64,000 bases of DNA from an uncultured Victivallales bacterium (GTDB taxonomy: Bacteria; Verrucomicrobiota; Kiritimatiellia; UBA8416; CAYSRM01), in assembly GCA_964433435.1 (NCBI GenBank), contig CAYSRM010000002.1, positions 1,292 through 65,291 on the forward strand, read 5' to 3'. Of the stretch, positions 2,584-48,695 are shown in pieces. A model generated the notes under the pieces. The model saw nothing but the letters and a program-made list of their open reading frames with translations. It did no database searches and had not been told where the DNA came from. How positions within the stretch are numbered: the first letter of the stretch is position 1; each line of letters begins with the position of its first letter. The position numbers and the translations under genes were made by a program.

Positions 2584-2605
2584 ATAATCCCTTAATCTGA
2601 TGTCT

Positions 2606-9459: not shown

Positions 9460-12400
9460 ATGAGAGGATATTGGCGGACCGGTTTTGTCGGGGCGTGTGT
9501 GGCGATGTGGGTAGGACTGGTCGCGGGGCCGGCGGAGGCGGTGGTGAAATTTACCGAACGGCCGGCGGCGGCTGAAGAGAAGGGCGAGGTCCGGATTCGT
9601 TTTGCCGTGGATCTGGAAACGGACGTGGCGGTGAGTATTCGGAATGGGGCTGGAAAGGTGGTCCGGCATTTGGCGGCAGGGCGACTTGGAAAGCGGGCGC
9701 CGTCGCCACTACAGCCGGATTCGCTGGCACAGTCGCTGGTCTGGGACGGCAAAGACGACTGGGGGCGTCAAGTGGAGCCGGGCCGTTACACAGTTGAGGT
9801 GGGCCTGGGGCTGACGGCGAGCCATGAGAAGAATTTGGATTGGGATCCCCGGCGGATCGGCACGGTGCATGGCCTGGCGGTTTTGAGCGGCGGCAATGTG
9901 TTGGTTATGAGCGAGACGGGGCGGGACAACAGAGACAGCCAGATTCAGGTGTTTACGGGCACGGGCAAGTACGTGCGAACTCTGGTGCCGCGGTCGGCGT
10001 CCATCGCAGTCGATCGCGCTAAACCTCTGGGGGAAATGATTCTTGCGACCGGCGAACGGTTTCCCAGTTCGCTTTTGCCTCAGTTCGGCGGGCGGGTTTA
10101 TCAGGTTCCGCTGGCAATGCCGGACGGCGACATTATCATCTGCAACTGGCTGGCGCCGCAGGGGCATGCGGAGGCGAAGCGGTTTCGGAGCAAGGCATGG
10201 CGTCAAGACTTGGACCGGCGCTTGCTGAGGCTGGCCGCCGATGGCGGGGCGTCTTCCGCCGGATACCTTGGACCGACGTTAACCGGAGACCTTGAAAAGG
10301 CCGTGGTTTTTCTGGCGCTTGGGCCGGATAACCTGATCTATCTTTCTGGCGGTTCCGGCGCGGTATATCGGGTGAAGTGGGGGGAGAATGAAAAGCCGGA
10401 GGTGTTTGTCAAGGGTCTGAAACAGCCGCGCGGAATCGGGTTCGACGCGGCGGGGAATCTGTACGTGGCCGACCGAGGTCTTCACAAGGTGGTCGTTTTT
10501 AACCAAAGAGGGAAACGCATCGCCGAAATTCCGGTGGAATGGCCGCGACATCTGTGTGTTCACCCCCAACGCGGCCATATGTATCTTACCGCTGGTTATG
10601 AAAAACAACGTTTACTCAAGTTTGACAGTATGAAGAGTGTCGCGCCGGCGGTTGCCGTGGATTTAGTGACCGACTGGCCGTTCCTTGCGCTGGACACGTC
10701 GGCCCGCCGGCCGGTTCTGTATGTCGGTAATACGCACGTGAGTAAAAGGCCGGGGGCGTCGAACATGGGGATCACGCGTTTTGTGGACAAAGGATCAACG
10801 TTGGCGCCGGCCGGTATGCTGGGCGAAGCAGCGCGGCCGAGGCAGCCGTTGCTCTACGGAGTTGACCGGGTGTGGGACAAGATTTACGGGAACTGGCCAT
10901 TCAGTGACTGGTGGCGGATGGACGGGGCAACCGGAGCGGTGGAGACGTTCGATCCGTTAGTGTCGCCCAAGGCGAACGGCATCACGGAGATCGCGGCGTC
11001 TCCCGACGGGCTTGTGGTGGCGCATGTGCGTGGTGAAATCGGGCGACTGGATCATCATCTGCGTCCGTACCCGTTTGCGGCGACAGGTTCGTATATTGCC
11101 GAGCTTCCGAATGAAGACAGCATTCGGAGCTATTATGGGCGCGATGTGGCGATGGCGCCGGACGGCGGTATGTACTGGATTTTCGAGAGAGGCGGGTACA
11201 ATCAGCCCATGCGGTGTTCTGCACTGGATTTCCGGGGTGAAACGAAGCGGGATTCCCTTATTGTTTTCGAAAGCGGCAGTCCGGCGGGTGTTCGGGTGGA
11301 TCGTAAGGGGAACATCTACGTGGCGGACCATCTCAAGCCTTTGGACAAGCTGGTGCCGGACGCGGTAAAGGAGGTGGTGCAACCGCGCAGGCGGGACTTG
11401 TTCGTCCATCATTACGGGAGTTTGCTGAAGTTCAAACCCACGGGGGGAGCGGTGCGCCTACTGAGCCGAGGGAAGCCGACGGTTCGGAAACTGGAGCCAG
11501 GCCAGATGCAGTTCACGGCTGCAGAAGGAGTAGGAGATTTCGTAGTGGACGGCGCCATCTGGAGCTATTTCGGAGTCTCAATGATCCGGCCCGCGCGACC
11601 GCGCGACGGATGTCAATGTTGGACACCGCGGTTTGATCTGGACGATTTCGGGCGCGTTTTTGTGCCGGATCAGCTCCGCTGCCGGATCGTGGTGCTGGAC
11701 GGCAACGGGAACGAAATCCTGGCCTTTGGACAATACGGGAATATGGATGACAAGCCGGTAAAGGGCGAAGATGGGATTCGCTGCATTCCGCTCGCTGATC
11801 CGCGGACGGTGATGGTTGGACGCGATTCAATCTATGTGGGGGACATGACCAACCTGCGCGTGGTCAAGGTAGGGTTGTCCTATCGCGTTTCCGACACGTG
11901 TGGCGTCACCCTGAAGCGGACGCCCCTGGCGCCGACACAGGTCATGACGGCTCTTCGCCGGTACGCTCGAGAATTGAGCCCGTACGCGGCAGACAACCTT
12001 AACTGGGATCTTGTTGAAACGCGTATTCTGCGTCTCGGCGAAGATGTAACTCGGGATGAAGCGCGGGCGGAACTGTGTCTGGCCTGCCGCGATCTCGTGA
12101 AGTGGCCGGAAAAAGAGCTGAAGACATTGCTGGGAAATGCGCTTCAGAGCGAATCCGAGGTGTTGCGTTGTGCAGCGCTTTGGACGCTTTGGGACGGATT
12201 TGGGGGCGAGACGGGCGGGGAGATGCTGAAAACGGCGGCGGAAGAAGACGACTCGGAGCTGGTTCGGACCGTGGCGGCTGTCACGTTGCTTAGCATGGAC
12301 GACACTGCGGGACTGGCGCAGGTGTTTGAGAGCGCGATGTCGGCGAACGACGTTGTCTATCGGCTTGCTGAGACTGCCATCCTTAAGAAGGCGATTATGC

Positions 12401-13080
12401 GCGATGCCGAACACCCCAAAGCGCGGCTTGTGGATAAATGGCAGGTGATCGTTCCGCGGTATGAGATAGGCGATCGCGAGGTGGATTCTCTGGTTAAAAT
12501 ACTGAAGCAGATAAGCAAGCGTGATGAGAAAGGCCGTGTGACATCGTGGTATCTTCAGCGAGCCGCGATTTTTCTGCTTGGGTTGAGCGAGAACGAAAAG
12601 GCCGCACAAGCCCTGCACGGGGAGCTGGTGAACGGCAAACCGATCGGCAAAAATCTCAACCGGTTTATTGGCGGTCTTGGCGCCTTGAGATACCGGCCGG
12701 CTGTGAAGGATCTGCTGTTCTATCTGGCCCGCGGGTCAAACTCGTCGTGGCGGGGCGGGCATGGCGACCAGGCCGAAATGTACTCGGCAACAGCGCTGGG
12801 CAGGCTGGGCGCGCCAGAGTCGGTGAGCCCGGTAATTGATCTGCTGGACAGCAGGACTAAAGGCGTGTCCGAAGAGGCCCTGCGTGCCTTGACCCTGATG
12901 TTCGATCCGTCATGTCCTGCGGACAGCCGTGTGGTGCCGGCTGGCGACAAACTCGAGCGCGTGCGCATGGATGCGTTGCCGGACGCAAAGGCGAGGAAGA
13001 AGGCATGGGCGGATTACTGGGCGGCCCACAGTGAAGCGTACGCCTGGCAGAAAAAAGGGTGGGGCTTGGGGCGGAAATAA
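9460..13080 (+). CDS. large secreted NHL-repeat beta-propeller + C-terminal HEAT/PBS-lyase-like repeat protein
   Basis: ATG 9460 with GAAGG RBS. Signal peptide MRGYWRTGFVGACVAMWVGLVAGPAEA. Repeated …YVAD… NHL motifs (NLYVADRGLHKVVVFN, NIYVADH). The C-terminal third is alpha-helical HEAT-like repeats (AALWTLWDGFG…, VAAVTLLSM…). Confidence 0.6.
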   Translation: MRGYWRTGFVGACVAMWVGLVAGPAEAVVKFTERPAAAEEKGEVRIRFAVDLETDVAVSIRNGAGKVVRHLAAGRLGKRAPSPLQPDSLAQSLVWDGKDDWGRQVEPGRYTVEVGLGLTASHEKNLDWDPRRIGTVHGLAVLSGGNVLVMSETGRDNRDSQIQVFTGTGKYVRTLVPRSASIAVDRAKPLGEMILATGERFPSSLLPQFGGRVYQVPLAMPDGDIIICNWLAPQGHAEAKRFRSKAWRQDLDRRLLRLAADGGASSAGYLGPTLTGDLEKAVVFLALGPDNLIYLSGGSGAVYRVKWGENEKPEVFVKGLKQPRGIGFDAAGNLYVADRGLHKVVVFNQRGKRIAEIPVEWPRHLCVHPQRGHMYLTAGYEKQRLLKFDSMKSVAPAVAVDLVTDWPFLALDTSARRPVLYVGNTHVSKRPGASNMGITRFVDKGSTLAPAGMLGEAARPRQPLLYGVDRVWDKIYGNWPFSDWWRMDGATGAVETFDPLVSPKANGITEIAASPDGLVVAHVRGEIGRLDHHLRPYPFAATGSYIAELPNEDSIRSYYGRDVAMAPDGGMYWIFERGGYNQPMRCSALDFRGETKRDSLIVFESGSPAGVRVDRKGNIYVADHLKPLDKLVPDAVKEVVQPRRRDLFVHHYGSLLKFKPTGGAVRLLSRGKPTVRKLEPGQMQFTAAEGVGDFVVDGAIWSYFGVSMIRPARPRDGCQCWTPRFDLDDFGRVFVPDQLRCRIVVLDGNGNEILAFGQYGNMDDKPVKGEDGIRCIPLADPRTVMVGRDSIYVGDMTNLRVVKVGLSYRVSDTCGVTLKRTPLAPTQVMTALRRYARELSPYAADNLNWDLVETRILRLGEDVTRDEARAELCLACRDLVKWPEKELKTLLGNALQSESEVLRCAALWTLWDGFGGETGGEMLKTAAEEDDSELVRTVAAVTLLSMDDTAGLAQVFESAMSANDVVYRLAETAILKKAIMRDAEHPKARLVDKWQVIVPRYEIGDREVDSLVKILKQISKRDEKGRVTSWYLQRAAIFLLGLSENEKAAQALHGELVNGKPIGKNLNRFIGGLGALRYRPAVKDLLFYLARGSNSSWRGGHGDQAEMYSATALGRLGAPESVSPVIDLLDSRTKGVSEEALRALTLMFDPSCPADSRVVPAGDKLERVRMDALPDAKARKKAWADYWAAHSEAYAWQKKGWGLGRK

Positions 13081-13208
13081 GGGGCATAGGCGTTCCGGGT
13101 CTGTCCGCGAGGTATGCGCGTGGAGCGATATTTTCCCGCGTCTGTGAATCAGTCATGGTTTGGTTGCCAAACGGAGGATATGGATGAAAACGATAAGTAA
13201 AGTTCTAG

Positions 13209-13384
13209 CCCGCATATCTCGCAAAATTCCTGCTGCGATCGCGAATAGCGCCACTGTGAGGGCACGAGTTGACCAAACACCAGATTGCAGTATGTCTATA
13301 CGGCTGCTCCGGCGTTTTATCAATTTACGCCCCCGCAGCAGCGCTTTCCACGCTCTCACTACGAAATTCTGTGAGATATGCGGG
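13209..13384 (+). mobile_element. MITE-like repeat copy 2 (176 bp; lacks the internal 21-bp CCGCCGTATGGCGGACAGGC hairpin segment)
   Basis: Same TIRs as copy 1 (CCCGCATATCTC… / …CTGTGAGATATGCGGG) and same orientation. It ends 9 bp before the first plausible start codon of the downstream gene. Confidence 0.75.
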
Positions 13385-13393
13385 CTAGCCTTA

Positions 13394-16300
13394 ATGATAT
13401 TTGCCGTCGGTTGCGGCTCTCCGTTGGCGGTGGCCAATGGCATGGAGGCGCAGACAAAACTTGACCTTCGTGTGTTTGACGGGAGGGCCTCAAGCTTCCT
13501 GGCGCGGATGGAGGAAGCGGGCATGCCGGTGTATAGGCTGACGGATGTGGCGGAGATTCGCGTGCCGCCGTTGGCCGGGGTAACGGATCCCCGGACGGCA
13601 TTGGAGCAGGTGGCCGCGGCGAGCGATTTGCATCTGGAATGGGTGGAGAACAAACCGCTGTTGTGCTATCTCTCGCCGCCGGGACAAAAGCGTGTTCTCC
13701 AAGACAAGGACGATGTCGACACTATAGGATGGAGCGGAAGCAAACAGGATGTTGCCGCTATTCTTGCCTTTTCGCGTAAAGCCGATCCGCCGTTGAAGCG
13801 GGCTTGCGCGGAAGCGGTGCTTCGTTTCGGCCGCGCCGCTGGTGCGGCCTTGCTCGACCGGGAAGCCGCCGAGGATCTGGTCAGGTTTGCTTTGACCGAT
13901 GACAACTGGCTTTTGCGTCGGCAAGCGGTTCTTGCGGCCGTTGATCTGGGCCTGGATAATGCCGCTGCGATGGTCGAAAAAGCGGCCATGGATAAGCATT
14001 CCGAGGTGGTTCGCGCTGCCGCGCTTGCGGCTGGACGTCTGGGTGGCGAGAAGGGTGCGGCGATTCTTGAAAAGCTTTTGAACCCGGAGCACGTGGACCG
14101 GCGTTTTCGCAGGGATGTTCGGTTTGCGGTGACTTATGGCTGTGCCGAATTGGGGACGGACAAGGCCGTCGAGCTTCTCGATAAACTCGTAGAGGGGAAG
14201 GACGCCTATCTGGCGGTTTGGGCGTTGCGAGCGGCGGGCCTGGTCGGGAATGATCGCGCTCTGGCTTTGCTGAAGGAGGCGGCGGCCGATTCCGACCCGA
14301 GGAGAAAACGGGGAGCGGCAATCGGGCTGGGTCATTGCCGGGCCGAGGGAGCCGTCGAGACATTGGCACCGCTGGCAATGTTTTCCCCACCCCGGGAAGG
14401 GATGTGGGTTCAGCCTCAGAATGCGGCAGCGGTCGCACTGGGCCGACATGGCACAAAAGAAGCGGTAAAGATCCTGATCGAAGCCTGGGATAAGCCGGCG
14501 GACTCGCCAAGGCTTGGGATCCTGTACGCGCTGGGGTTGGCGGGAACGCCGGCAGCGCTGGATTTTCTCGAAACGCAGCGCAAGAACCCGGATGAGCGGC
14601 TTCAACAGGCTGCTTCCTGGGCATTGGACAAAAAAAATGGTATGGAGGGTGGGCCCGTTAAGGCGGATGGTGTGGAGGTAGAGGTGCTTCCCGGACGTCC
14701 GCGTCTCTGGCTGCGGGCTGGCAATCGAGACGGTTACGAGGGGCCAAGCCTCGTGAAAATCCGCCGGAACTTCAGGCGGCCGGATTACCGGCGGGCAGCC
14801 AAAATGGACAAGCTGCCCCGGGACCGGATGGGACAATTGGTTCTATGGTTGGTGTCCGGCGACGAGTTTGCGGGGATGGACGCTGCTGCATGGGCCTGCG
14901 AAATGCAGGACAAGGGCATTGCGCGGGCGCGTGGAAGGACGCCGAGTTACTGGGGCATCAGTGTTCAACGCACGGCCGCAGCCTACGACTGGCTTCATGG
15001 CCATGGCGACGTGGACCCCGTTACCCGCCGCATGATAATGCACCATCTGGAGGATTGGGCTTTGAATGCCTATGAATGGGTGGAAAAGAAGCATTCAACT
15101 GTCTTTTACTCCAGACGATGGGGTGCGCTGGCGGGCTGCGGGGTGGCGGGCCTGGCCTTGTACGGAGACAGTCCCCTGGCGGACAAGTGCGTTGAACTTG
15201 CGGCCTGGCATATGACGGCGGCGGACGGCCTGGGAAGCATACGCCAGGCTCAGGACGGGGTGACAGCAGGTTCGTGTTATGGACTTCACCATATGTTTAC
15301 GGACAATGCGAATCTGGTGGCTGCCCTTACCTATGCGACGGACCTGGACGTGGCGTCCATTATCCGGGAGCAGCGCGGGGACTGGCTCCGGAAGCAGCTT
15401 TACTTCCAGATGCATTGCACCTATCCGGACGGCACTTTTCTCAAGGACGGCGATATGTGGTCCGGCGCCAGCGAAAGAAGCCAGTATCGGATGCAGGTGG
15501 ACGTGGTAACGGGGCTTTATCAAGACGGTTTCGGGCGAACTTGGGCCGACCGGATGGCGGCGCGGTGGCCGGCGTACTATCCGTCTGACTACCACACCAA
15601 ATATGTCTGGCAATTCTTTGTGTTCAACGACCCGGATGTGAAGGGGCGGCCGTTAGCGGAAATGCCGCGCTGCATGCTGTTCAGTCCGAAACTGGACGGC
15701 TATGTTCTGTGGCGGTCCGGATGGGGCAAGGACGACACGGTGGTTCATTTTCATTGCGGGGATTCGCTGGATATGCACGGCGGCTATGACCAAGGCAAAT
15801 TCGTTATCTTCAAGCACAAGCCGCTGGCCAACAAGAACGGCATATACAAGCACTTCGGATCGCCGTTGCACAAGTATTACAGGAGCGCCCTGAGCGCCAA
15901 TGTGGTGATTTTCGATTCACCTGTCAGAAGAGGCAAGGGACGTACGACAGAGCAGATTGGTTATCAGAACAAGGCCGGCGGAGTGAATTCGTTCGATGAG
16001 TTCAAGAAGGTCCGCGCTTCCTTCGGGCCGCCGGTCGGCAAAATTGTGAAGCATGAAGTCACAAAGAACTATGCCAGGGCTGTGGGTGTTCTTGACGGCT
16101 CCACGCAGGACAAGGGCAAGGAAAATAAATGGACGAGAGAGATGGTTTTCCTGGACTATCAATATGTTGTGGTTCTGGACAGGGTGCGAACCGGTCCGCA
16201 AAGCAGCGCCAAATGGTTGCTTAATTTCGAAAAAGAGCCTCGGGTTGAGTCCGATGTTATCCGGTTTGACAATGAACCCGGCCGCTTGTTCTGTCGGACA

Positions 16301-16543
16301 CTCTTGCCCGAAAACCCCGCCTTCAAGAAAGTTGGCGGCAACGATGCGCCCGAGGTCATGCGCCACCAGTGGCGCGTTGAGGTGAGCGGACCCGATCCCG
16401 GCGCCGCGGACCAGGTATTCCTGCACGTTCTGTTTCCGGCGGAGACAACGACGAAAGCCATGCCTAAGTGCGAGGTTAGGAAAAAGGGAGCCGAGTATGT
16501 AGTAACCGTCGGAGGGCAGACGATTTCGGTTGGAGCAGAGTGA
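13394..16543 (+). CDS. HEAT-repeat + heparinase II/III-like polysaccharide-lyase-domain protein
   Basis: N-terminal about 400 aa of PBS-lyase HEAT-like repeats. The C-terminal region has the …HFHCGDSLDMHGGYDQGKFVIFKHKPLA… signature of heparinase II/III-like/alginate-lyase-type domains. The start is uncertain: the ORF is open in frame back through the MITE to 13160, ATG 13394 gives MIFAVGC(lipobox-like)GSP, and ATG 13274 lies inside the MITE. Confidence 0.6.
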   Translation: MIFAVGCGSPLAVANGMEAQTKLDLRVFDGRASSFLARMEEAGMPVYRLTDVAEIRVPPLAGVTDPRTALEQVAAASDLHLEWVENKPLLCYLSPPGQKRVLQDKDDVDTIGWSGSKQDVAAILAFSRKADPPLKRACAEAVLRFGRAAGAALLDREAAEDLVRFALTDDNWLLRRQAVLAAVDLGLDNAAAMVEKAAMDKHSEVVRAAALAAGRLGGEKGAAILEKLLNPEHVDRRFRRDVRFAVTYGCAELGTDKAVELLDKLVEGKDAYLAVWALRAAGLVGNDRALALLKEAAADSDPRRKRGAAIGLGHCRAEGAVETLAPLAMFSPPREGMWVQPQNAAAVALGRHGTKEAVKILIEAWDKPADSPRLGILYALGLAGTPAALDFLETQRKNPDERLQQAASWALDKKNGMEGGPVKADGVEVEVLPGRPRLWLRAGNRDGYEGPSLVKIRRNFRRPDYRRAAKMDKLPRDRMGQLVLWLVSGDEFAGMDAAAWACEMQDKGIARARGRTPSYWGISVQRTAAAYDWLHGHGDVDPVTRRMIMHHLEDWALNAYEWVEKKHSTVFYSRRWGALAGCGVAGLALYGDSPLADKCVELAAWHMTAADGLGSIRQAQDGVTAGSCYGLHHMFTDNANLVAALTYATDLDVASIIREQRGDWLRKQLYFQMHCTYPDGTFLKDGDMWSGASERSQYRMQVDVVTGLYQDGFGRTWADRMAARWPAYYPSDYHTKYVWQFFVFNDPDVKGRPLAEMPRCMLFSPKLDGYVLWRSGWGKDDTVVHFHCGDSLDMHGGYDQGKFVIFKHKPLANKNGIYKHFGSPLHKYYRSALSANVVIFDSPVRRGKGRTTEQIGYQNKAGGVNSFDEFKKVRASFGPPVGKIVKHEVTKNYARAVGVLDGSTQDKGKENKWTREMVFLDYQYVVVLDRVRTGPQSSAKWLLNFEKEPRVESDVIRFDNEPGRLFCRTLLPENPAFKKVGGNDAPEVMRHQWRVEVSGPDPGAADQVFLHVLFPAETTTKAMPKCEVRKKGAEYVVTVGGQTISVGAE

Positions 16544-16631
16544 GAATCACGGCGGTGCAATCGCTACGGGAAGGCTTGCCTGGATGGACGGCGAGTCTCC
16601 CCCGAATACATCATTGCAGGGGCCTGCGGTA

Positions 16632-16668
16632 TCCGCGCTCGCAGCAGGAAATCTGTGAGATATGCGGG
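16632..16668 (-). repeat. MITE-family fragment (left-terminal about 37 bp, inverted orientation)
   Basis: TCCGCGCTCGCAGCAGGAAATCTGTGAGATATGCGGG is the reverse complement of the left end of copy 1. Lies 31 bp upstream of the GH94-like gene start. Confidence 0.6.
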
Positions 16669-16699
16669 TTAGGCTTGGATAGAGAAAGGGAGTTTGCTT

Positions 16700-19039
16700 A
16701 TGCCGCCCCATCCCCGGTTCATTAACGAAGATAGGCGCTATACGGTGCGGGACGCCAACGGCAGCGTTTGTGCCGACAGCTACCTGCACAACGATGCGCT
16801 TTATATTAAGGCGGACCAGCGCGGCAACGTGGCGGCGCATTTCAACCAGCCGCAGTTCACGCGTTATTCGGAAGGCCTTCGAAGCTTCTACATCCGCGAC
16901 AAGAAATCCGGCGAGTTCTGGAGCGCTCCCTTCGACCCGGTTCAGGTTCCGGCGGAACGCTTCGAGTTTTCCGCCGGGCTGGACGACCTGGTCTGGATCA
17001 ACCAGACCCATGGCATCGAAACCGTCCTCCGTCTCTTTGTCCCGCGCCACGACTGTGTCGAGGTCTGGACGGCCACCCTGGCCAACCGATCCAGTTACAC
17101 CCGCCGCCTTTCGGTTTTTAGCTATTTTCCTATCGGTTCTCCCAGTTCGTTGTACCAGAGGGGAAATTTTGATTCCAATTTGAATGGCATTGTTCTGTGG
17201 CATTTTCCGGGGCACAGCGATGCGGAAGAGTACTGGAGACTCAAGGAAGGCCATAACTTCACGTTTTGCCTGGCGGACCGAAAACCGGTAGCATATGAAA
17301 CCACGCGCGAGGCCTTTCTCGGACATACCGGGTTAAAGTCGCCGCATGGACTCATGCGGCGCCGGTTGGCCAGTCGCCCCTGTTTTATGGATCCGTGCGC
17401 AGCTATCATGCAATTTTCCGTTACGTTGAAAGCGGGACAGGAAACGGACTTGCGGTTTCTTTTTGGGCCGGCCGTGGACCGAACCCGGATTCGTCGGCTC
17501 CGGACTCGTTATTTTCGTCCGGGCGGTTTCGAGCGCGCCTGGCGTATGGTCGAAGCGTTCCGGGAAAAACACGCGCCCGCCGTTCGGATTGAAACCCCCG
17601 ATAAGGTTCTGAATAATTTTGTCAACGATTGGCTTCCCAAACAGACTATCTATTGCGGATATAATCAGCGCATGAGTATGGCTCCCTGTATCCGCAATTG
17701 CCTGCAGGATGCGATGGGCCTGGTTTTCAACGCCCCGCAACGGGCGCGCGAGCTGTTTCTGAAAGCTTTCGCGGAGCAGGATTCGGATGGCGGACTCTGG
17801 ATGTCGGTCATGCTGGCACCCGTTTCCTTGGACCGCGGGTTTGTTGCCAAACATCGGGACAAGAACGTCTGGAGTCCCTTTGTGCTGCAGTACTATCTTT
17901 TGGAAACCGGCGACAACAGTCTGCTCACGGAACCGGTTCCCTTCAAGGATGCCCCGCGGCAAAAAGCCTCGGTATTCGATCACGTTTGCCTTGGGCTCGA
18001 CTGGTTGCTCAGGGATCGCACGCGCCGGGGACTCAGTCTTTTGGGCGAAGGAGATTGGTGCGATCCCCTTAACATGGCCGGCGTGCGCATGAAAGGCGAG
18101 TCAGTTTGGTTAAGCCAGGCTTTGGTTCACGCGCTCGATATCTGGAGTGACGTGTCGGAGGATCTAGCACACCGTCCGGATATCGCTGCGCGCTACCGCA
18201 AAGAGGCAGAGAAGCTCCGGCAAATTATCAACCGACATGCCTGGGATGGAGCTTGGTACGCCGCAGGTTTTACGGATGCAGGCAAACCATTCGGTGTTGC
18301 CGCCGATCGCGAAGGAAAGGTGTGGCTCAATGCGCAGAGCTGGGCATTGATCGGCGGAATTGCTACAGAATGGCGGGCCGAGCGCGTGCGCAAAAGCGTT
18401 GCCCGCTGGGTTTCCACGCCGACCGGACCCACCGTCCTAAGTCCTGCCTACACCTCAATGCGGGAGGATATCGGCCGGGTGACAATCAAGGTTCCCGGGA
18501 CCAATGAAAATGGCGCAATCTATTGCCATGCAGCCTCCTTTATGGCTTATGCGCATTACCTCACGCGCAGTCCGGACGAAGCTTTTGCCGTTCTGCGGCC
18601 GCTTCTTCCGGGTGGACGGGGCAATCCCAACACGGTTGCCCGGTGCGGGCAACTGCCCCTATACATTCCCAATATGTATCGCGGACCGGGCGCCGGATGG
18701 ACGGCCGGACAAAGCAGCCGCGATCCCGCCACAGGTACGGCCGCCTGGTTCTATCGGCTCGTGATCGGACACCTGCTCGGGGTTCGCGCCGAACCGAATG
18801 GACTGCGCCTGGATCCGCAGCTCCCTTCCTATTGGTCCCGTGCGCGTGTGTGGCGCCGTTTTCGTGGCGCGGAATTCGATATCGTCATAACGCGAAACCG
18901 TAAAGGATCCCGCATCGAAGTCGAATTGGATGGGAATCGGCTTCAAGACACGATTGTCCCGCCGCAAGAACCTGGGAGCACACACAAAATAACGGTGCGT
19001 TATCCGGCTATTGAAGATGATAAACCGAATATTACATAA
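16700..19039 (+). CDS. GH94-like (cellobiose/chitobiose-phosphorylase type, former GT36) (alpha/alpha)6-barrel glycoside phosphorylase
   Basis: ATG 16700 with AAAGGGAG RBS. N-terminal beta-sandwich plus (alpha/alpha)6 region containing the GEGDWCDPLNMAG catalytic-acid-type motif of GH94/GH65-clan phosphorylases. No signal peptide. Confidence 0.65.
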   Translation: MPPHPRFINEDRRYTVRDANGSVCADSYLHNDALYIKADQRGNVAAHFNQPQFTRYSEGLRSFYIRDKKSGEFWSAPFDPVQVPAERFEFSAGLDDLVWINQTHGIETVLRLFVPRHDCVEVWTATLANRSSYTRRLSVFSYFPIGSPSSLYQRGNFDSNLNGIVLWHFPGHSDAEEYWRLKEGHNFTFCLADRKPVAYETTREAFLGHTGLKSPHGLMRRRLASRPCFMDPCAAIMQFSVTLKAGQETDLRFLFGPAVDRTRIRRLRTRYFRPGGFERAWRMVEAFREKHAPAVRIETPDKVLNNFVNDWLPKQTIYCGYNQRMSMAPCIRNCLQDAMGLVFNAPQRARELFLKAFAEQDSDGGLWMSVMLAPVSLDRGFVAKHRDKNVWSPFVLQYYLLETGDNSLLTEPVPFKDAPRQKASVFDHVCLGLDWLLRDRTRRGLSLLGEGDWCDPLNMAGVRMKGESVWLSQALVHALDIWSDVSEDLAHRPDIAARYRKEAEKLRQIINRHAWDGAWYAAGFTDAGKPFGVAADREGKVWLNAQSWALIGGIATEWRAERVRKSVARWVSTPTGPTVLSPAYTSMREDIGRVTIKVPGTNENGAIYCHAASFMAYAHYLTRSPDEAFAVLRPLLPGGRGNPNTVARCGQLPLYIPNMYRGPGAGWTAGQSSRDPATGTAAWFYRLVIGHLLGVRAEPNGLRLDPQLPSYWSRARVWRRFRGAEFDIVITRNRKGSRIEVELDGNRLQDTIVPPQEPGSTHKITVRYPAIEDDKPNIT

Positions 19040-19094
19040 TGCGTAGCTCGGTCCGAACTTTCAAACACATTGTTTATGCTCGAAAGGAAAACTA

Positions 19095-20132
19095 ATGAAG
19101 ACACCAAGAGAATCCATGATGGCCGCGCTGAATCGCGAACCAACGAGCGGGCGGCCGCCGCATTTCGAACTGGAGTTTTTTCTGACCATGGAGGCCTTCG
19201 GCCGCGTGCATCCTTCGCAACGAGATTACCGGCAATGGCAACAGATGTCCGAGACCGAACGCGACCTCCATCGGCGCGATGTGGCGGACCTGCATCTGGA
19301 AACGGCACGGCGCTACGAGCAGGCAGGCATGCTCTTTCACAGTCCGCGCGGCTGGAACGAAACGGATACCCGGCAGGCGCTCGAATACGTGCGTAAGCTG
19401 GGAGGCCAGGAACGTTGGATCGCTTTGCACGGCGACGCCACATACGCTATTCCTCATGGCGATGCGATGATGGCATTCGTTGCGAGATTGGCTGACGATC
19501 CGGAAGGGGTCAAAGATGAAGCGCGACGGCGCGTGGATAAAGCGCTGGAGCGAGGCAAACGCCTGCGCCGATGGGGAACACTCGATGGGTTCTGTCTGTG
19601 CGCGGACTATTGCTTTAATGACAACCCTTTCCTTTCTCCGGCTATGTTCGATGTGTTCGTGGCCCCCTACCTGAAAGATTTGGTGACCGGATATCGGGAA
19701 ATGGGCTATTATGTTGTGAAACATACCGACGGCAATATCATGCCCATTTTAGATGTCTTGGTTTCTGCCAATCCGCATGCCTTGCACAGTCTTGATCCGC
19801 AAGGCGGTGTGGATCTGGCGGAAGTCAAGCACCGTGTTGGAGACCGCGTCTGCCTGATTGGCAACGTGAACTGTGCCTTGCTCCAGACCGGTACGGACCA
19901 GGAAGCTGCCGCCGATGTCCAGCGTGCTCTTGTCCAGGGCGCACCGGGAGGCGGCTACATATTTAGTACCAGCAACTGTATCTATACCGGGATGAGTTTG
20001 AAACGCTACGAGATGATGCTCGATATCTGGCGTCAGTTTTCCGTCGAGACGGCTTGCCGCCCCAAAGCTGAAATGAATCCGCAACCCGACAACACGGGTT
20101 TGGATACAACATCCGGAGAAACCATAGTATGA
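19095..20132 (+). CDS. uroporphyrinogen decarboxylase (URO-D) family protein (MtaA/CmuA-like fold)
   Basis: TIM-barrel URO-D-like sequence ending in …GGGYIFSTSNCIYTGM…. RBS GAAAGGAAAACTAATG. Function within this family cannot be assigned from sequence. Confidence 0.65.
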   Translation: MKTPRESMMAALNREPTSGRPPHFELEFFLTMEAFGRVHPSQRDYRQWQQMSETERDLHRRDVADLHLETARRYEQAGMLFHSPRGWNETDTRQALEYVRKLGGQERWIALHGDATYAIPHGDAMMAFVARLADDPEGVKDEARRRVDKALERGKRLRRWGTLDGFCLCADYCFNDNPFLSPAMFDVFVAPYLKDLVTGYREMGYYVVKHTDGNIMPILDVLVSANPHALHSLDPQGGVDLAEVKHRVGDRVCLIGNVNCALLQTGTDQEAAADVQRALVQGAPGGGYIFSTSNCIYTGMSLKRYEMMLDIWRQFSVETACRPKAEMNPQPDNTGLDTTSGETIV

Positions 20133-21988
20133 ACCTATGTGCGACTCGGTATAGACGAATCCCGCGGCTTCCCGGCCCCGCTGATCGTATCCCGATTCTG
20201 ATCGATACCGATGCCGGATGCGAAAACGACGACCAATACGCCATAGCTCTTGCGTTATGCATGCCCGAGCGCTTCGAAATCAAAGGCTTTGTGGCTACTT
20301 TTTTTCGCCAATCCCCTGACAGCATCCCGGAGGCTGTCGAAGAAATTGCGCTTGTCCAAAATCTTTGTGGTTGCGAATATCCTGTTTACGCAGGCGGTGC
20401 TCCGCTTAGCTATCCGGGGGTAGGCAATAACAGCGCGGGCGCGGACTTCATTATTGAAACGGCCCGGGCGCATGATGCCGACAACCCTATCTGGGTCGTT
20501 GTTTTGGGACCCACAACGAATACGGCTTCGGCGCTTCTGCAGTGCCCGGAGATCGCAAGCAAAATGGTTGTTCTGTTTCACGGACGAACCCGTTACTGGC
20601 CCAGGCAGGCTTGGAACAACAATGTTGATGCCGATCTCCGTGCGACGCAGGCGCTTTTCCGGTCGCGCGTTCCCCTGGTGTTATTCGACACTGGCTCCTA
20701 CCTTCGCATTGACAACGCCGTCACGACCCGTCGCCTGGGGGTACACGGAGCCATTGGCGCTTACCTGCAGGACCTGCGCGAAGCCAAGCCGATTCGAAAA
20801 ACTCCGCGCAAGGCGTTTTTTGATCTGGGCGATATTGCCTGGCTCGCGGATCAGTCGGTAGGCGCCGTCGAGAAAATCGAAGTTCCCGAACTCGGCAACG
20901 ACACGTTTCTTGACTGGAGACAAAGGCATGGTGAGGCGCTCCGGGTATATCAACTGGACGATGCCCGCGTCTGGGAACTGTTCTTCTCGGCGCTGAAACA
21001 CCGGTATCCGGACCCCACCCCCTACTTTGCCAGGCCCGAACGGGTCAAGCTCTATCCGGAAACGGCGCGCGCCGCCGCGGAAGCGGCGGCCAAGGCCGCC
21101 GGTCCTATCCCTCAGCGCGTTGTTCCCCCCTCTCCGCCTCCAGGCCGCCTGCCCGTTCTCATTGATGCCGATGTGGGCGCGGAAATTGATGAGCAGTATG
21201 CGATCGCCCTGGCCCTGCGGTCCCCGGACCGCTTTCACATTGTCGGCATCACCGGCAGTCATTTTCAGGGTGCACCCGGTAGCCCGGCGGAATGCGTTGA
21301 ACAGGCGCGCCGGCTTCTCGATCTCGCCGGACGTCCGAATCTTTGTCCCGTGGCCCGCGGTTGCGATCCGTTGTCATGGCCTCGTTGCCCGATGCAAGGC
21401 GAGGCGGTGGACCTCATCATCACGAAAGCCATGGAAAGGTCGCCCCGCGATCCTCTGTGGGTGATTGTGCTCGGCCCGTTGAGCAACATGGCGTCGGCCT
21501 ATTTAAAGCAGCCGGAAATATCGGAGCGGATTGTTCTTCTGTTTCACTCTTGCTCTCGGCATTGGGATATGAAGTTTTCCAGCTACAATGCGCTTCAAGA
21601 CTGGCGGGCTGCGCAGGTGGTGTTAACCTCGCGGATTCCCCTGATTCTGTTCGATGCCGGCGCCCATTTGACCCTTTCTATGGAAGAAACCGGTTCTCGA
21701 CTCGCGTCTGCCGATCTATTAGGCGCCTACCTGCATGACTGCCGGCATCGGCACTCCGACTATGCCGATCCGTGCAAAGGTTTCTTCGATCTGGCCGGTA
21801 TCGCCTGGCTTTGCGAACCCGCCATCGGCGAATGGCAGGAAGTCGATATGCCGGCGATCGACGCGGATACCATGCTTGATTTCACGCGAACGCATGGCCG
21901 CTGCCTCCGTGTCTACCAGATAGACAATCGCAGGGCACGAGCGCTTTTCTTCGATAGAATGCTATCTTCCGGGGGAGGGTCGTCATGA
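20129..21988 (+). CDS. tandem-duplicated inosine-uridine nucleoside N-ribohydrolase (IUNH)-like protein
   Basis: Two IUNH-fold halves, each opening with the DxDxxxDDxxA aspartate cluster (IDTDAGCENDDQYAIALAL and IDADVGAEIDEQYAIALAL), separated by an Ala/Pro-rich linker. Start overlaps the upstream stop (ATGA). Confidence 0.65.
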   Translation: MNLCATRYRRIPRLPGPADRIPILIDTDAGCENDDQYAIALALCMPERFEIKGFVATFFRQSPDSIPEAVEEIALVQNLCGCEYPVYAGGAPLSYPGVGNNSAGADFIIETARAHDADNPIWVVVLGPTTNTASALLQCPEIASKMVVLFHGRTRYWPRQAWNNNVDADLRATQALFRSRVPLVLFDTGSYLRIDNAVTTRRLGVHGAIGAYLQDLREAKPIRKTPRKAFFDLGDIAWLADQSVGAVEKIEVPELGNDTFLDWRQRHGEALRVYQLDDARVWELFFSALKHRYPDPTPYFARPERVKLYPETARAAAEAAAKAAGPIPQRVVPPSPPPGRLPVLIDADVGAEIDEQYAIALALRSPDRFHIVGITGSHFQGAPGSPAECVEQARRLLDLAGRPNLCPVARGCDPLSWPRCPMQGEAVDLIITKAMERSPRDPLWVIVLGPLSNMASAYLKQPEISERIVLLFHSCSRHWDMKFSSYNALQDWRAAQVVLTSRIPLILFDAGAHLTLSMEETGSRLASADLLGAYLHDCRHRHSDYADPCKGFFDLAGIAWLCEPAIGEWQEVDMPAIDADTMLDFTRTHGRCLRVYQIDNRRARALFFDRMLSSGGGSS

Positions 21989-22137
21989 TAGGGATTGTCG
22001 TTGGAACTGCCGCACCGGGGCATTCTTTTCGTTCTTTTTTTGCAGCAAGGGCGATGGAGTATTACAAATTCAAAATCACTAGCGTCCCATATGGCAAAGG
22101 GGGACTAACCACGGAGACACTGAGTTACGGAGAAGAG

Positions 22138-22173
22138 GTCGTGTGAATTCGCGAGGATCCGAATTCACACGAC
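22138..22173. repeat. perfect 14-bp-stem palindrome containing EcoRI–BamHI–EcoRI sites
   Basis: GTCGTGTGAATTCG-CGAGGATC-CGAATTCACACGAC. NdeI (CATATG), HindIII (AAGCTT) and PstI (CTGCAG) sites also lie within about 150 bp. It sits in the 385-bp gap after the 20129-21988 gene and has no U-tract. Confidence 0.5.
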
Positions 22174-22373
22174 GGTGGTGGTGGGAGAAAGATGAGAGCA
22201 CGAGAGAAGGCTCCGAGTCTCCGTGCCTCCGTGGTAAGCTTTCTTCTGCAGTAGGAAAATATCGAATGCAGGGTTGACGCGGCATGCCGAAAACGTTAGT
22301 AAGTGCGGCTGTTTCCGGCCCAATATCAGGGCTTATGGGATGGTAGTGATTCAAAATAGGAGGGTTGGCAATT

Positions 22374-23561
22374 ATGGAATATCTTAACTTGAGAGACGAT
22401 GAACAATCTCTTTTTCTAAACGCAGCACGATTAGCGGCCAACTGGCTGAACCATACGCAAAATACGGAACGTCATCCCTGGACAACCTATCGGGTCGCCC
22501 AAAGCGCCGACAACGGGCGCTTTTTGGAGAAGATGTGTCCGGCTCGCGAGGACCGCATGCCGGCAGGCGTGTGGCTGAGTGGTCTTTATCTGTGCGGGCT
22601 GACGGCCATGGACAAAACGCCTGTTCTCAATCGCGATCGCTATGGCTATGCCGTGGAATGCGGCGCGCGGTTTCTGAAAAGCCTGCAGTGCTTTGACACA
22701 CGCTGGCCAAAGGCGATCGGCGGATTTCATGAAGTCTGGCCTGGCCACTCTTATTCGGCTCCGCGTGACGCTGCCACGGGCGCGTTCGGGCTGGTCGCGT
22801 TGTACGAGGCTACCGGCGACAAGGATCTGCTGGACCGCGCCATCCGGTTCGGACAATGGTACAAGACGCACGGCAGCGATCCCGACGGCTATCCCTGGGA
22901 CGACTTCAACCTGGAAACCGGCGAAGGAACCAGTCATAAACGCGGCGACTGGCAAGCGGGCGGAACTTTGATCTACTGGATGCTGTGGACGCTGACAGGC
23001 GACGAGGCATGGAAAGCGCCGCTGAAAAGAGCTCTCGACGTTTTACTGGAGATATGCGCCAACGATCCTGGTACGGATACCGCCTATACCTTCCACGGCG
23101 ACAACATCATCTCAATTGGCAACGACGATTTCGCCACGACTGCGCTGATGGCAGGCTACAAGCTTTTCGGTGACGAGCGGTACCGCGATTTGGCCGCGCA
23201 CCGACTTCGCGCCGAGCTGGTCAGACAGGCGCCGAGTGGCGCTTTCCCGGGCTATGGCGGCACCTTTGTTACGGCGCTTGAACTGCTCGAAGCGCTTGCT
23301 ATGGCGTTGCAAGGCATGGAAATCCTGACGCCGGACGAAATCCGCGAGCCGTTGCTCAAGGCGGCTCGCCACTCGCTCTTGCTGCAGGAAACTGTCAACC
23401 CGGACCGTTATGTGCATGGCGGTGTGTACGGCGAGAGCAACTACGGGCAAAGCCGCGACGTTATTCACGGACGCGATACTGGCTATGCCATTCAGCTATG
23501 GCTGCGACTGGCCGGCTATCGGGCTCCGACCTACGAAGTGGTCGGGAGGCAAGCTTCATGA
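22374..23561 (+). CDS. (alpha/alpha)6-barrel (six-hairpin glycosidase-like) hypothetical protein
   Basis: ATG 22374 with TAGGAGGG RBS. Repeated helical-hairpin pattern with …LVALYEATGDKDLLDRAIRFGQWY… resembling GH88/GH105/AGE-type toroid proteins. Family not assignable by eye. Confidence 0.4.
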   Translation: MEYLNLRDDEQSLFLNAARLAANWLNHTQNTERHPWTTYRVAQSADNGRFLEKMCPAREDRMPAGVWLSGLYLCGLTAMDKTPVLNRDRYGYAVECGARFLKSLQCFDTRWPKAIGGFHEVWPGHSYSAPRDAATGAFGLVALYEATGDKDLLDRAIRFGQWYKTHGSDPDGYPWDDFNLETGEGTSHKRGDWQAGGTLIYWMLWTLTGDEAWKAPLKRALDVLLEICANDPGTDTAYTFHGDNIISIGNDDFATTALMAGYKLFGDERYRDLAAHRLRAELVRQAPSGAFPGYGGTFVTALELLEALAMALQGMEILTPDEIREPLLKAARHSLLLQETVNPDRYVHGGVYGESNYGQSRDVIHGRDTGYAIQLWLRLAGYRAPTYEVVGRQAS

Positions 23562-26290: not shown

Positions 26291-26489
26291 GTTCAGTCGA
26301 TCGCCTTTTCTTTAAAAACGTTTTATGGACTCTGTCTCTTAGTTTAGATAAGATCATGTTTTCACAAAGTGTACTTTTACTCAAATCACTATTCTGAATT
26401 ATCCATTTTAGTGATCCAGTTATCAACTCCTGAGAGTTGAGAACTGGATCCGGCGTATCAGGAAAAACATATTATTGCAGAAAATTTCT

Positions 26490-27128
26490 ATGAAGACGAT
26501 TCAGCATGTAATATGGGACTGGAATGGAACTCTGCTGGATGACGTTTCGGCCTGCGTGCTTTCGTTGAACCACATTCTGGCCCAGCGTGGTTTACGATAT
26601 ATGACCGCAGAGGACTACCAGTCGGAATTCGATTTTCCCGTCAAAAGCTTCTATACAAGGTTGGGGCTGGATTTCGAACGGGAAGACTGGGACGCCCTTG
26701 CCAGGGAATACTATGATCTTTACGACTCTTACTCGGTAGATACACCCTTAAGAAAGGGGATTGTCGAAACCCTCAACCATATCAGCAGCCTCGGAATAAA
26801 AATGTCCGTTCTGTCAGCGTGCGAAAAGAATATACTGGCACATATGCTTAGTCAGAGAGGCATCAACTCATACTTCCAGCAGGTCTCCGGGTTGCACAAT
26901 CTTTACGCGGAATCCAAGGTTGACATTGGGAAGGAACTCATATCAAAGTTTCAGGTTCCTTCGACAAACATTATACTTGTGGGCGACACAACGCATGATT
27001 TCGAGGTAGCCAGAGAATTGAACTGCCGTTGTATCCTGGTTGCAGGAGGACATCAGTCCAGCAACAGGCTGGAAGCATGCGGTTGCCCGCTTGTAGCGGA
27101 GCCCGGCGATATAACCGACTGGCTGTAA
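26490..27128 (+). CDS. HAD-superfamily hydrolase (phosphoglycolate-phosphatase-like)
   Basis: HAD motif I DWNGTLLDD and motif IV VGDTTHD. The start could alternatively be the TTG at 26475. Confidence 0.7.
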   Translation: MKTIQHVIWDWNGTLLDDVSACVLSLNHILAQRGLRYMTAEDYQSEFDFPVKSFYTRLGLDFEREDWDALAREYYDLYDSYSVDTPLRKGIVETLNHISSLGIKMSVLSACEKNILAHMLSQRGINSYFQQVSGLHNLYAESKVDIGKELISKFQVPSTNIILVGDTTHDFEVARELNCRCILVAGGHQSSNRLEACGCPLVAEPGDITDWL

Positions 27129-27141
27129 TGAAAGGACCGGT

Positions 27142-28977
27142 ATGGACAAGGAACTGAAAGTAACTTTTGAGCCTTCCGGCCGCACAGTTTATGTACTGGC
27201 GGGAACAACACTTCTTGAAGCGGCTGCACGGGGCGGATACATCATAGAAACGCCGTGCGGGGGCGCCGGCAGGTGCGGAAAATGCCTGGTTCGAATCACT
27301 GCAGGAGAATGCCCGGCATCTAACCCGAAAGAGTCTGTTCTGTCCAACGAACAGATACAAAAAGGATACCGCATGGCCTGTCAGTGCACCGTCGAAGACA
27401 GTCTCACTGTAGAAATACCGGAGAAATCCCTGTTCCAAACCGCACAGAAGATCCTTTCGGAAAGCCTTCAGAGAGAAGGCGAACTGCGTACCGCGGTTGT
27501 GAAAAAGCCGGTGCAGCTGGAAAGACCCTCACGGTCTAACATACTTTCCGATATAGAAAGCCTGAAAAAAACCATCGGAGAAGTACAGATTGACCTCGCG
27601 GCAACAAGAAAACTTCCTGATGCCTTGCGGGCGGGTGACTATTGGATAACAGTGACGCTCGTAGACAGTACGGTTATTGATGTCGAACCCGGGGATACCT
27701 CGCAGGAATGTTATGGTGTAGCCTTTGATATAGGCACCACCACAGTGGTCGGCACTCTGGTAGACATGATACGTGATAAAGATGTTGCCGTCGCAAGCGC
27801 TATAAACCCACAGACGTCTTTCGGAGACGACGTCGTTTCCCGAATAAAGAAATGCAGGGAAGAGCCTGATGGACTCATCGAACTTCAATCGTCGATAATC
27901 AATGCGGTAAATCGAATCATAGAAGAACTAGCCACAAAGGCCGGCATTCAAGCCCCCCGGATTTGCGAAGGAGTCTTTGCGGGCAATACAACCATGCAGC
28001 AGCTTTTATGCGGCATAACGCCTTTGGCGTTGGGCGAAATTCCTTTTGCTCCGGTTTTTCGTGAAGCTTTCGAAACAACAGCGGCGAGTCTTGGGCTTGA
28101 CATTAACCCTGCGGCAAGGGTCCATCTGTTGCCGCAACTTGGCGGCTTTGTCGGGGGAGACACCGTCGCAGGTATACTGGCTTCAAGGTTGAACGAATAC
28201 AAAGAGCCTGCATTGCTGATTGATGTAGGAACAAACGGTGAAATCGTGCTGGCGAACCGTGGACGCCTTGTTGCCACTTCAGTTGCAGCAGGCCCGGCTT
28301 TTGAAGGCGCAAGAATAACCAACGGCATGAGAGCAACGGCGGGTGCAATTGAAAAAGTCGTGCTTAACGAAGACGTGTTGATAAATGTAATCGGCAATGC
28401 TGCCCCCTCGGGCATATGCGGAACAGGTCTGGTAGACGCAACGGCAGAATTGCTCCGTTCAGGCATCCTGGAGAGCACCGGCCGCATAAAGGACCCGGCG
28501 GAAGCGCCAGAAGAACTTCCGCCGGCTATTCGGGAGCGAATAGTAAAGAACGGTGATCATTCTGATTTTGTCCTTGCCTGGAAGAAAGAATCTTCTACCG
28601 GAGAGAATGTCTGCCTCTATCAAAAAGACGTCAGAGAACTACAACTGGCTAACGGAGCAATCAGGGCAGGAATAAATATGCTGCTAAAAAAAGAAAACCT
28701 TTCCGTCAACGACCTTGGGAAAGTTCTGATTGCAGGCGCCTTCGGCAACTTTATAAGACGCCGGAACGCGAAGCGAATAGGAATGATGCCGGATGTGGAA
28801 CTGGAAAGAATACAGTTTGTAGGAAATACAGCTTCATTCGGGGCCAAAAGGGTGCTTCTTTCGTTGACTGAAAGAAGCTATGCGGAAAGAATTCTGAAGA
28901 TAACCGAACACCTCGACCTGTCACTGAATCCCGAATTCCAGATGGAGTTCGCAGAGGCAATGATGTTTCCCGATTAA
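27142..28977 (+). CDS. RACo-like ASKHA-domain protein with N-terminal [2Fe-2S] ferredoxin (reductive activator of corrinoid proteins family)
   Basis: Plant-type ferredoxin Cys pattern CGGAGRCGKC…C…C at the N-terminus, followed by ASKHA ATPase motifs DIGTTTVVG and DVGTNGEIV (COG3894/DUF4445 architecture). Confidence 0.7.
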   Translation: MDKELKVTFEPSGRTVYVLAGTTLLEAAARGGYIIETPCGGAGRCGKCLVRITAGECPASNPKESVLSNEQIQKGYRMACQCTVEDSLTVEIPEKSLFQTAQKILSESLQREGELRTAVVKKPVQLERPSRSNILSDIESLKKTIGEVQIDLAATRKLPDALRAGDYWITVTLVDSTVIDVEPGDTSQECYGVAFDIGTTTVVGTLVDMIRDKDVAVASAINPQTSFGDDVVSRIKKCREEPDGLIELQSSIINAVNRIIEELATKAGIQAPRICEGVFAGNTTMQQLLCGITPLALGEIPFAPVFREAFETTAASLGLDINPAARVHLLPQLGGFVGGDTVAGILASRLNEYKEPALLIDVGTNGEIVLANRGRLVATSVAAGPAFEGARITNGMRATAGAIEKVVLNEDVLINVIGNAAPSGICGTGLVDATAELLRSGILESTGRIKDPAEAPEELPPAIRERIVKNGDHSDFVLAWKKESSTGENVCLYQKDVRELQLANGAIRAGINMLLKKENLSVNDLGKVLIAGAFGNFIRRRNAKRIGMMPDVELERIQFVGNTASFGAKRVLLSLTERSYAERILKITEHLDLSLNPEFQMEFAEAMMFPD

Positions 28978-48645: not shown

Positions 48646-48695
48646 CTTTTTCTCCATCTAAAGGCGATCATATTTCATGCTGAACGAAATTTGGG

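Follow-up and report, generated by a model that had tools for sequence, protein, structure and literature searches.

A GH94 phosphorylase, a URO-D-fold protein and a tandem nucleoside-hydrolase-like protein encoded in a probably horizontally acquired glycan-utilisation cluster of an uncultured Victivallales bacterium

Three described proteins provide the reference points for this study: the cellobionic acid phosphorylase of Saccharophagus degradans (SdCBAP, EC 2.4.1.321), the structure of which is available as 4ZLE (PMC8950772); CdmB, a corrinoid methyltransferase that is encoded in the chloromethane methyltransferase cluster cdmBCA, a corrinoid-dependent system of Acetobacterium; and the nucleoside hydrolase (NH)-like domain of Sde_0182, which is inactive on nucleosides and has been proposed to bind a furanose (PMC8910321). 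Proteins related to these three are encoded next to one another in a stretch of 64,000 nucleotides from an uncultured Victivallales bacterium (contig CAYSRM010000002.1, positions 1,292 to 65,291), which is referred to below as the window. The genes lie on one strand and encode a GH94 phosphorylase (16700-19039), a protein with the uroporphyrinogen decarboxylase (URO-D) fold (19095-20132) and a tandem NH-like protein (20129-21988).

In our view, this trio makes up the cytoplasmic portion of a six-gene cluster for glycan utilisation (9451-23561) that is specific to the lineage and was probably acquired horizontally. We assign a probability of about 0.65 to this explanation as a whole, including the view that the trio is an arrangement of one lineage and does not represent a conserved pathway of three steps. 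The cluster can be regarded as a mosaic glycan-utilisation operon, which is a familiar kind of arrangement. The main leads that emerge from it are three protein families, foremost among them one with a possible role in the anaerobic O-demethylation of sugars.

Conservation and arrangement of the trio

The triad was sought from three starting points, namely the homologs of the URO-D-fold, NH-like and GH94 proteins. The best 80 genome loci with orthologs of the URO-D-fold protein (56-74% identity, with up to 10 kb of flanking sequence per side) did not include a single one with a GH94, NH-like or (alpha/alpha)6 gene within about 10 kb. Likewise, none of the 80 metagenome loci with NH-like relatives carried a GH94, orthologous URO-D or (alpha/alpha)6 gene, and an orthologous URO-D or NH-like gene was found in none of the five other lineages of the GH94 subclade (60-78% identity). 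URO-D genes do occur beside other NH-like genes, and these are distant paralogs with 20-28% identity to the one in the window, not orthologs. The initial annotation of this DNA had suggested a multi-step pathway and a gene-neighbourhood comparison by which to examine it, and had named a lack of the triad in other genomes as the outcome that would speak against it; with the triad unique to the window among the loci examined, that proposal is not upheld.

The three open reading frames, the gap and the overlap that separate them, and the assignment to the GH94, URO-D and IUNH-fold families were all described correctly in the initial annotation: the positions are exact and Pfam confirmed each of the domain calls. 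The GH94 gene starts with the ATG at 16700, with AAAGGGAG just 5' of it, and stops at 19039. It is separated by 55 nucleotides (19040-19094) from the URO-D gene, the start of which at 19095 is backed by an alignment in which the orthologs begin with MTPRESF. The ATG of the NH-like gene (20129) shares the sequence ATGA with the preceding URO-D stop codon TGA. No signal peptide was found in any of the three proteins. An independently assembled Logan contig (SRR15425353, L179) is 100% identical to the window from 13360 to 22101, which includes both junctions of the trio. These junctions are therefore no artefact of assembly or binning, and a chimera of either kind is ruled out. The three tightly packed genes are probably co-transcribed, and the ATGA overlap suggests translational coupling of the URO-D and NH-like genes. 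A scan for promoters and terminators was uninformative, the counts being at or below those expected from shuffled sequences.

The trio belongs to a run of six plus-strand genes (9451-23561) with a GC content of 0.56-0.60 and a GC content at third codon positions (GC3) of 0.62-0.68. The genes on either side mostly have values of 0.46-0.54 and 0.47-0.57, respectively; one sulfatase gene (50417-51796) is likewise GC-rich. The elevated GC and GC3 of the six genes point to a separate history of this block of approximately 14 kb, which was probably acquired horizontally as judged from its composition.

The last gene of the block (22374-23561) encodes an (alpha/alpha)6 protein that is the conserved partner of the GH94 subclade in other genomes. 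A copy with 64% identity is located directly upstream of GH94 in L011/L012 and another, with 54% identity, about 2 kb from GH94 in L014. In the window, GH94 is separated from this partner by the URO-D and NH-like genes. The URO-D-fold protein ends in a tail of about 27 residues (approximately 316-345) that is not conserved and was modelled with a predicted local distance difference test (pLDDT) score below 50. Most orthologs end within about 10 residues of window residue 315, and the few that have tails have unrelated sequences. It is inside this tail that the overlap with the NH-like gene falls. In other genomes, GH94 has the (alpha/alpha)6 gene beside it, whereas the neighbours of the URO-D orthologs are variable. 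The URO-D and NH-like pair therefore seems to have been inserted between GH94 and its usual partner, with the new junction located in the non-conserved C-terminal extension of the URO-D-fold protein. These features fit a recent insertion and do not fit an old, selected pathway.

Predicted roles of the three proteins

The roles of the three enzymes were assigned with decreasing confidence from GH94 to the URO-D-fold protein and then the NH-like protein. The GH94 phosphorylase, a cytoplasmic protein of 779 residues, scored above the cut-offs of both the supersandwich model PF06165 (100.7 bits, 1.2e-28) and the catalytic model PF17167 (208 bits, 2.7e-61). Among solved structures, 4ZLE is by a wide margin its best match (E 2.6e-161, residues 47-771), and this alignment places the window protein in the CBAP branch. 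Like SdCBAP, it combines the supersandwich with an (alpha/alpha)6 architecture, and the two proteins can be aligned over their full length. The catalytic general-acid Asp of SdCBAP (D472) lies within the motif GDWCDP, which is identical in the window protein, and Arg and Lys are present at its R609 and K613 positions (GRVTIKVPG). In SdCBAP, these two residues and Q190 of the neighbouring subunit reportedly bind the carboxylate of the acceptor (Nam et al., 2015). Unlike SdCBAP, the window protein has a Ser in place of Q190, and the two are only about 45% identical. The subclade of the window protein is also not associated with the oxidative degradation of cellulose; its links are to the (alpha/alpha)6 protein and to large beta-propeller proteins that are secreted. 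From the match to 4ZLE and the retention of the catalytic Asp, the Arg and the Lys, we infer that the window protein is a phosphorylase for beta-glucosyl disaccharides whose reducing-end sugar is an aldonic or uronic acid. It would phosphorolyse such an acid-ended disaccharide to glucose 1-phosphate and an acid sugar, and would do so together with the (alpha/alpha)6 protein with which it is associated elsewhere.

The GH94 subclade itself consists of about seven sequence clusters with 60-78% identity. Its loci (L096-L098 at 77%, L013 at 73%, L011/L012 at 70% and L014 at 60% identity) contain genes for large Kelch-type beta-propeller proteins, a sulfatase, GH130, GH65, an SSF transporter and a protein of 499 residues. 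In L096-L098 (1770-3269), the GH94 stop codon is overlapped by the gene for this 499-residue protein, which has no Pfam match, and a Kelch-like secreted protein is encoded next. A CBAP-like GH94 subclade with a conserved (alpha/alpha)6 partner constitutes the third of the leads mentioned above.

The URO-D-fold protein (345 residues) belongs to a conserved subfamily that has no name of its own and whose members are labelled 'uroporphyrinogen decarboxylase family protein' throughout. The initial annotation had raised the question of whether the gene could be a bona fide hemE. It is not: the protein scores 19.3 bits against a cut-off of 302.95 for the hemE model TIGR01464, and its match to the URO-D family (PF01208, 2.1e-19) is limited to residues 179-314, the C-terminal 136 residues, without the N-terminal substrate-binding half. 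HemE thus shares the overall fold with the window protein, but differs in score, in identity (14-16%), in the C-terminal restriction of the PF01208 match and in the lack of any haem-pathway context. The MtaA/CmuA models ranked above the hemE model, although the scores were below the cut-offs throughout (TIGR01463, 29.3 versus 235.4; NF004889, 36.6 versus 244). In a Foldseek search with the AlphaFold model (pLDDT 85), HemE and MtaA structures tied at TM scores of 0.64-0.70 and 14-16% identity, and the best profile match in the PDB was the corrinoid methyltransferase CdmB (6e-06).

The protein resembles MtaA (4AY7) in its TIM barrel (TM score of about 0.66-0.70) and in the retained His and the Gly-Asn that follows the metal motif. 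When the protein is aligned transitively, by way of a paralog, with 4AY7 and HemE, its invariant residues K-H210-T-D212-G-N and S-N294-C295 fall where MtaA has its zinc motif (H-I-C-G-N and G-C-G). Unlike in MtaA, Asp takes the place of a zinc-ligand Cys and the second Cys lies one position away from its counterpart; this set of residues is compatible with a variant metal site. The protein also stands apart from the named corrinoid methyltransferase families, namely MtaA/MtbA, CmuA, O-demethylase MT I and CdmB (4AY7, 9RUI), with 29-37 bits against cut-offs of 235-400, and its N-terminal half resembles no named family. A further difference from corrinoid methyltransferases lies in the usual context of the subfamily: its members tend to be encoded among genes for carbohydrates and transporters in organisms that degrade polysaccharides, in many cases with no corrinoid protein nearby.

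The family is large, with more than 7000 clusters of homologs, the top 120 of which have 66-76% identity and come from the Lentisphaerota, Kiritimatiellota, Planctomycetota, Marinimicrobia, Spirochaetota, Bacteroidota and others. A genome scan identified orthologs in at least 568 species and added the Chloroflexota and Armatimonadota. Few clusters at 50% identity are close to the subfamily. The family is abundant and strongly conserved, with 60-76% identity across phyla. In some genomes it accompanies corrinoid proteins or RACo, the activase that reduces corrinoid enzymes, and in others it is found with sugar transporters and glycosidases.

The strongest clue to its function came from those genomes in which corrinoid proteins or RACo adjoin the ortholog. 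Among the 80 loci, a corrinoid protein is adjacent in L047, L068, L087 and L095, and RACo in L047 and L077. In L068, L087 and L095, a small B12-binding corrinoid protein is encoded 45-133 nucleotides downstream of the ortholog; the pair is followed by a URO-D paralog in L068, and in L095 it is preceded by genes for an HpcH aldolase and an ABC transporter of the sugar type. Locus L047 of a member of the Phycisphaerales (9056-18169) encodes a protein with a homocysteine-S-methyltransferase domain, the URO-D ortholog, a RACo from which the ferredoxin domain is missing, DUF1638, a corrinoid protein, an MtaB-like protein and two URO-D paralogs. By its gene content, this locus is a predicted complete corrinoid methyl-transfer system in an organism that is neither an acetogen nor a methanogen. 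In L077, the ortholog comes straight after a full RACo gene, and a gene for a GH106 rhamnosidase is found two genes further downstream. The commonest neighbours of the orthologs are URO-D paralogs (17 of the 80 loci).

These adjacencies in several lineages lead us to regard the URO-D-fold protein, with moderate confidence, as a probable corrinoid-dependent methyltransferase. The initial annotation had named corrinoid-dependent methyl transfer as one use of the fold; this part of it gains indirect support from the corrinoid and RACo neighbours in other genomes. The enzyme would be metal- and corrinoid-dependent and of the MtaA or O-demethylase MT type, with its corrinoid protein encoded elsewhere and its activity kept up by RACo. 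In the present context, the most attractive role would be the anoxic removal of O-methyl groups from a sugar, and we put forward the demethylation of O-methyl sugars as a hypothesis only. The only route for sugar demethylation that we found in the literature is the oxygen-dependent one of cytochrome P450. If the hypothesis were true, anaerobic corrinoid demethylation would close a gap in the breakdown of methylated algal and plant glycans. That the family as a whole represents the missing oxygen-independent route for the removal of methyl ethers from sugars, as a corrinoid-dependent component slotted into many glycan loci of polysaccharide degraders and placed here next to a phosphorylase for acid disaccharides and a tandem NH-like enzyme acting on furanosides, appears unlikely at present.

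The tandem NH-like protein (619 residues) has a rare architecture with two NH folds. It matched IU_nuc_hydro (PF01156, 1.9e-31) in two stretches and also the Sde182_NH-like model. Its structural model was of high confidence (pLDDT 92, pTM 0.90), and each half could be superimposed on nucleoside hydrolases with a target-normalised TM score of about 0.7 at about 20% identity. The acidic motifs DTDAGCENDD and DADVGAEIDE are of the type DxDxxxxxDD, with an insertion of two residues relative to DxDxxxDD, the N-terminal motif for calcium and ribose in nucleoside hydrolases, and both halves keep an Asn-rich ribose-binding segment and the C-terminal Asp. In characterised nucleoside hydrolases, a His residue (LHD) beside this Asp, which is a calcium ligand, activates the leaving group; this residue is replaced by Phe (FFD) in both halves. 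The scores for the equivalog models RihA, RihB, RihC and UriH were far below cut-off, the best being 67.6 versus 382 for RihC. Only five full-length homologs were found among 5.8 billion protein clusters, and in relatives that have a single NH domain and about 40% identity, this domain is joined to a GH5, F5/8C, PIG-L or pectate lyase domain. Thus, the window protein shares the NH fold, the acidic metal-binding cluster and the link to carbohydrate genes with the NH-like domain of Sde_0182 (PF07632, 2YHG) and the PF01156 hydrolases, but differs from them in having two NH modules in a single cytoplasmic chain that lacks carbohydrate-binding modules, and from the PF01156 hydrolases also in the absence of the leaving-group His. 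Judging from these motifs and fusions, the likeliest activity is the recognition or hydrolysis of a ribosyl-like furanosyl unit, other than a standard nucleoside. The protein would accordingly bind or cut a non-canonical furanosyl unit.

The gene neighbourhoods of the NH-like relatives may indicate the fate of the product. In three lineages (L006, L007/8 and L009/10), a gene of the AP_endonuc_2 family overlaps the NH-like stop codon. It is followed in L006-L008 by genes for a split transketolase, GntR, an iron-containing alcohol dehydrogenase (Fe-ADH), RpiB, two URO-D paralogs and GH29 fucosidases, and in L009/L010 the contigs end inside the gene that comes after AP_endonuc_2. An IolO-like AP_endonuc_2 gene recurs in L099, L101, L104, L142 and L156, and a split transketolase in L101, L131, L142 and L156. 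In L015, a URO-D paralog is encoded immediately downstream of the NH-like gene. The NCBIfam model closest to the neighbouring isomerase is IolO, for which it scored 247.7 bits against a cut-off of 300. A route for D-apiose with an apiose transketolase was considered and rejected: the isomerase is nearest to IolO, and the transketolase halves matched only generic models below their cut-offs. The combination of the NH-like protein, either tandem or single-domain, with an IolO-like isomerase or epimerase encoded directly after it and a split transketolase looks like an undescribed sugar catabolic route, and this carbohydrate-linked family therefore points to a module of its own. The likeliest role of the NH-like protein in those genomes would be to feed its product into the isomerase and transketolase route, which the window does not contain.

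Alternative explanations

The three enzymes could form one dedicated pathway, a selected unit acting on a single modified glycoside or nucleoside-like sugar by phosphorolysis, demethylation or decarboxylation, and N- or O-ribosidic cleavage. Their location on one strand with a 55-nucleotide gap and an ATGA overlap, and their common GC and GC3 values, would agree with this, as would the presence of NH-like genes near URO-D paralogs elsewhere, which lie immediately downstream in L015 and within 5-8 kb in L006-L008 and L101. However, those paralogs have only 20-28% identity to the window protein, the partners of the three genes differ from one another in other genomes, none of the related loci examined contains the triad, and the position of the overlap in a non-conserved tail suggests a recent junction. 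We consider this pathway very unlikely. Slightly easier to entertain, though still quite unlikely, is the idea that the URO-D-fold protein works without a corrinoid, as a decarboxylase that needs no cofactor or as some other enzyme, on the acid sugar released by GH94. The top Foldseek matches are indeed uroporphyrinogen decarboxylases (TM scores of 0.64-0.70), an acid sugar is the predicted GH94 product, and most ortholog loci have no corrinoid protein nearby. Nevertheless, HemE and MtaA structures match equally well at 14-16% identity, the sequence models prefer MtaA/CmuA to hemE, the N-terminal substrate-binding half is outside the family-model match, a corrinoid protein or RACo is immediately adjacent in at least three independent lineages, and the orthologs were never found alongside GH94 in the 80 loci. 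The tandem NH-like protein, in turn, could be an ordinary nucleoside hydrolase for salvage that stands beside sugar genes by chance, which we hold to be unlikely. Such a role would suit its PF01156 match, with RihA and RihC as the nearest named families, its NH fold with a conserved Asp cluster, and the RpiB and transketolase genes beside its orthologs, which would be appropriate for ribose catabolism. It is opposed by the low Rih equivalog scores, the two-residue insertion in the Asp motif and the Phe in place of the leaving-group His in both halves, the fusion of relatives to carbohydrate-active domains, and the inactivity of the related Sde_0182 domain on nucleosides.

Several points also weigh against the six-gene glycan cluster and the roles that we favour within it. 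The tight packing and shared composition of the trio could mean that its members work together in this lineage; in this bacterium, the genes may be expressed together and their products may process parts of a single complex glycan. Concerning the URO-D-fold protein, the MtaA zinc motif H-x-C...C is not intact (H-T-D and N-C), and no neighbour is fixed: 123 Pfam families were represented among 131 adjacent open reading frames, with MFS transporters and AraC regulators leading. Corrinoid machinery is near an ortholog in only about 5-6 of the 80 loci, three of which are from the Chloroflexota and may reflect a single event. A tblastn search detected no corrinoid-binding protein in the window, and the RACo gene that the window does contain is outside the GC-rich block and may be unrelated to the URO-D-fold protein. 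We found no paper that connects the URO-D family with methylated sugars or with the use of polysaccharides. For GH94, the carboxylate-binding role of the equivalents of R609, K613 and Q190 is presumed from what Nam et al. reportedly found for SdCBAP in 2015. Lastly, the heparinase-like assignment of another gene in the block (13160-16543) is weak.

Other genes of the block and its surroundings

The first gene of the block (9451-13080, plus strand; GC 0.60, GC3 0.68) encodes a secreted protein of 1209 residues with a signal peptide, a FlgD-Ig domain, an NHL beta-propeller and HEAT repeats. The second (13160-16543, plus strand) encodes a probable lipoprotein of 1127 residues with HEAT repeats (PF13646, 2.8e-23), a lipobox-like sequence (FAVGC) and a C-terminal domain that weakly resembles heparinase II/III. 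It scores 25.5 bits for PF07940 against a cut-off of 24 and far under the cut-off of the HepB model, and is a candidate polysaccharide lyase by these matches. The (alpha/alpha)6-like protein at the end of the block (plus strand) has about 395 residues and weak matches to GH76, GH88 and GH127, and is not assigned to a family.

The intergenic region of 385 nucleotides between the NH-like and (alpha/alpha)6 genes (21989-22373) is strongly structured. It contains three nested inverted repeats, namely 22074-22091/22334-22351, 22105-22132/22211-22238 and a perfect 14-bp hairpin (22138-22173), and its predicted RNA fold has an energy of -114.5 kcal/mol (z = -5.4). Rfam gave no matches in the whole window, this spacer included, and a second copy of the element was found neither in the rest of the window nor in any fetched locus. 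The independent Logan contig stops at 22101, at the edge of the repeats.

The flanks with native GC content include a GH130 gene, three sulfatase genes, a serpin gene and a pair of genes for a HAD-family hydrolase and RACo (26475-28977). In this pair, the HAD-family gene is followed after 13 nucleotides by a full-length RACo gene with a 2Fe-2S domain (27142-28977, plus strand), the product of which has Fer2, RACo linker, middle and ASKHA domains. It is located 7 kb downstream of the URO-D gene, beyond the GC-rich block, and neither a corrinoid protein nor a methyltransferase gene is present beside the pair within the window. By analogy with the loci described above, this RACo is a possible helper of the URO-D-fold protein. 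Three consecutive sulfatase genes (47131-51796) and a gene for a bacterial serpin (53925-55214), all on the minus strand, fit a lifestyle of sulfated-glycan degradation, and the gene content suggests that the host is a polysaccharide degrader of the Planctomycetota-Verrucomicrobiota-Chlamydiota (PVC) type.

The GH130 protein (7984-8997, minus strand) is 61% identical to one encoded in L022 (3163-5158), which is from a Victivallales metagenome-assembled genome. There, the GH130 gene is located directly 3' of the URO-D ortholog; the corresponding pair in the window is 10 kb apart, on opposite strands and in regions that differ in composition. A run of four minus-strand genes (1483-7102) encodes an Ldh_2 dehydrogenase, a fusion protein of 903 residues, a Gfo/Idh/MocA oxidoreductase and an amidohydrolase of the creatininase family. 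The fusion protein is dihydropyrimidine-dehydrogenase-like, with DHO_dh, 4Fe-4S and pyridine-nucleotide-disulphide oxidoreductase domains.

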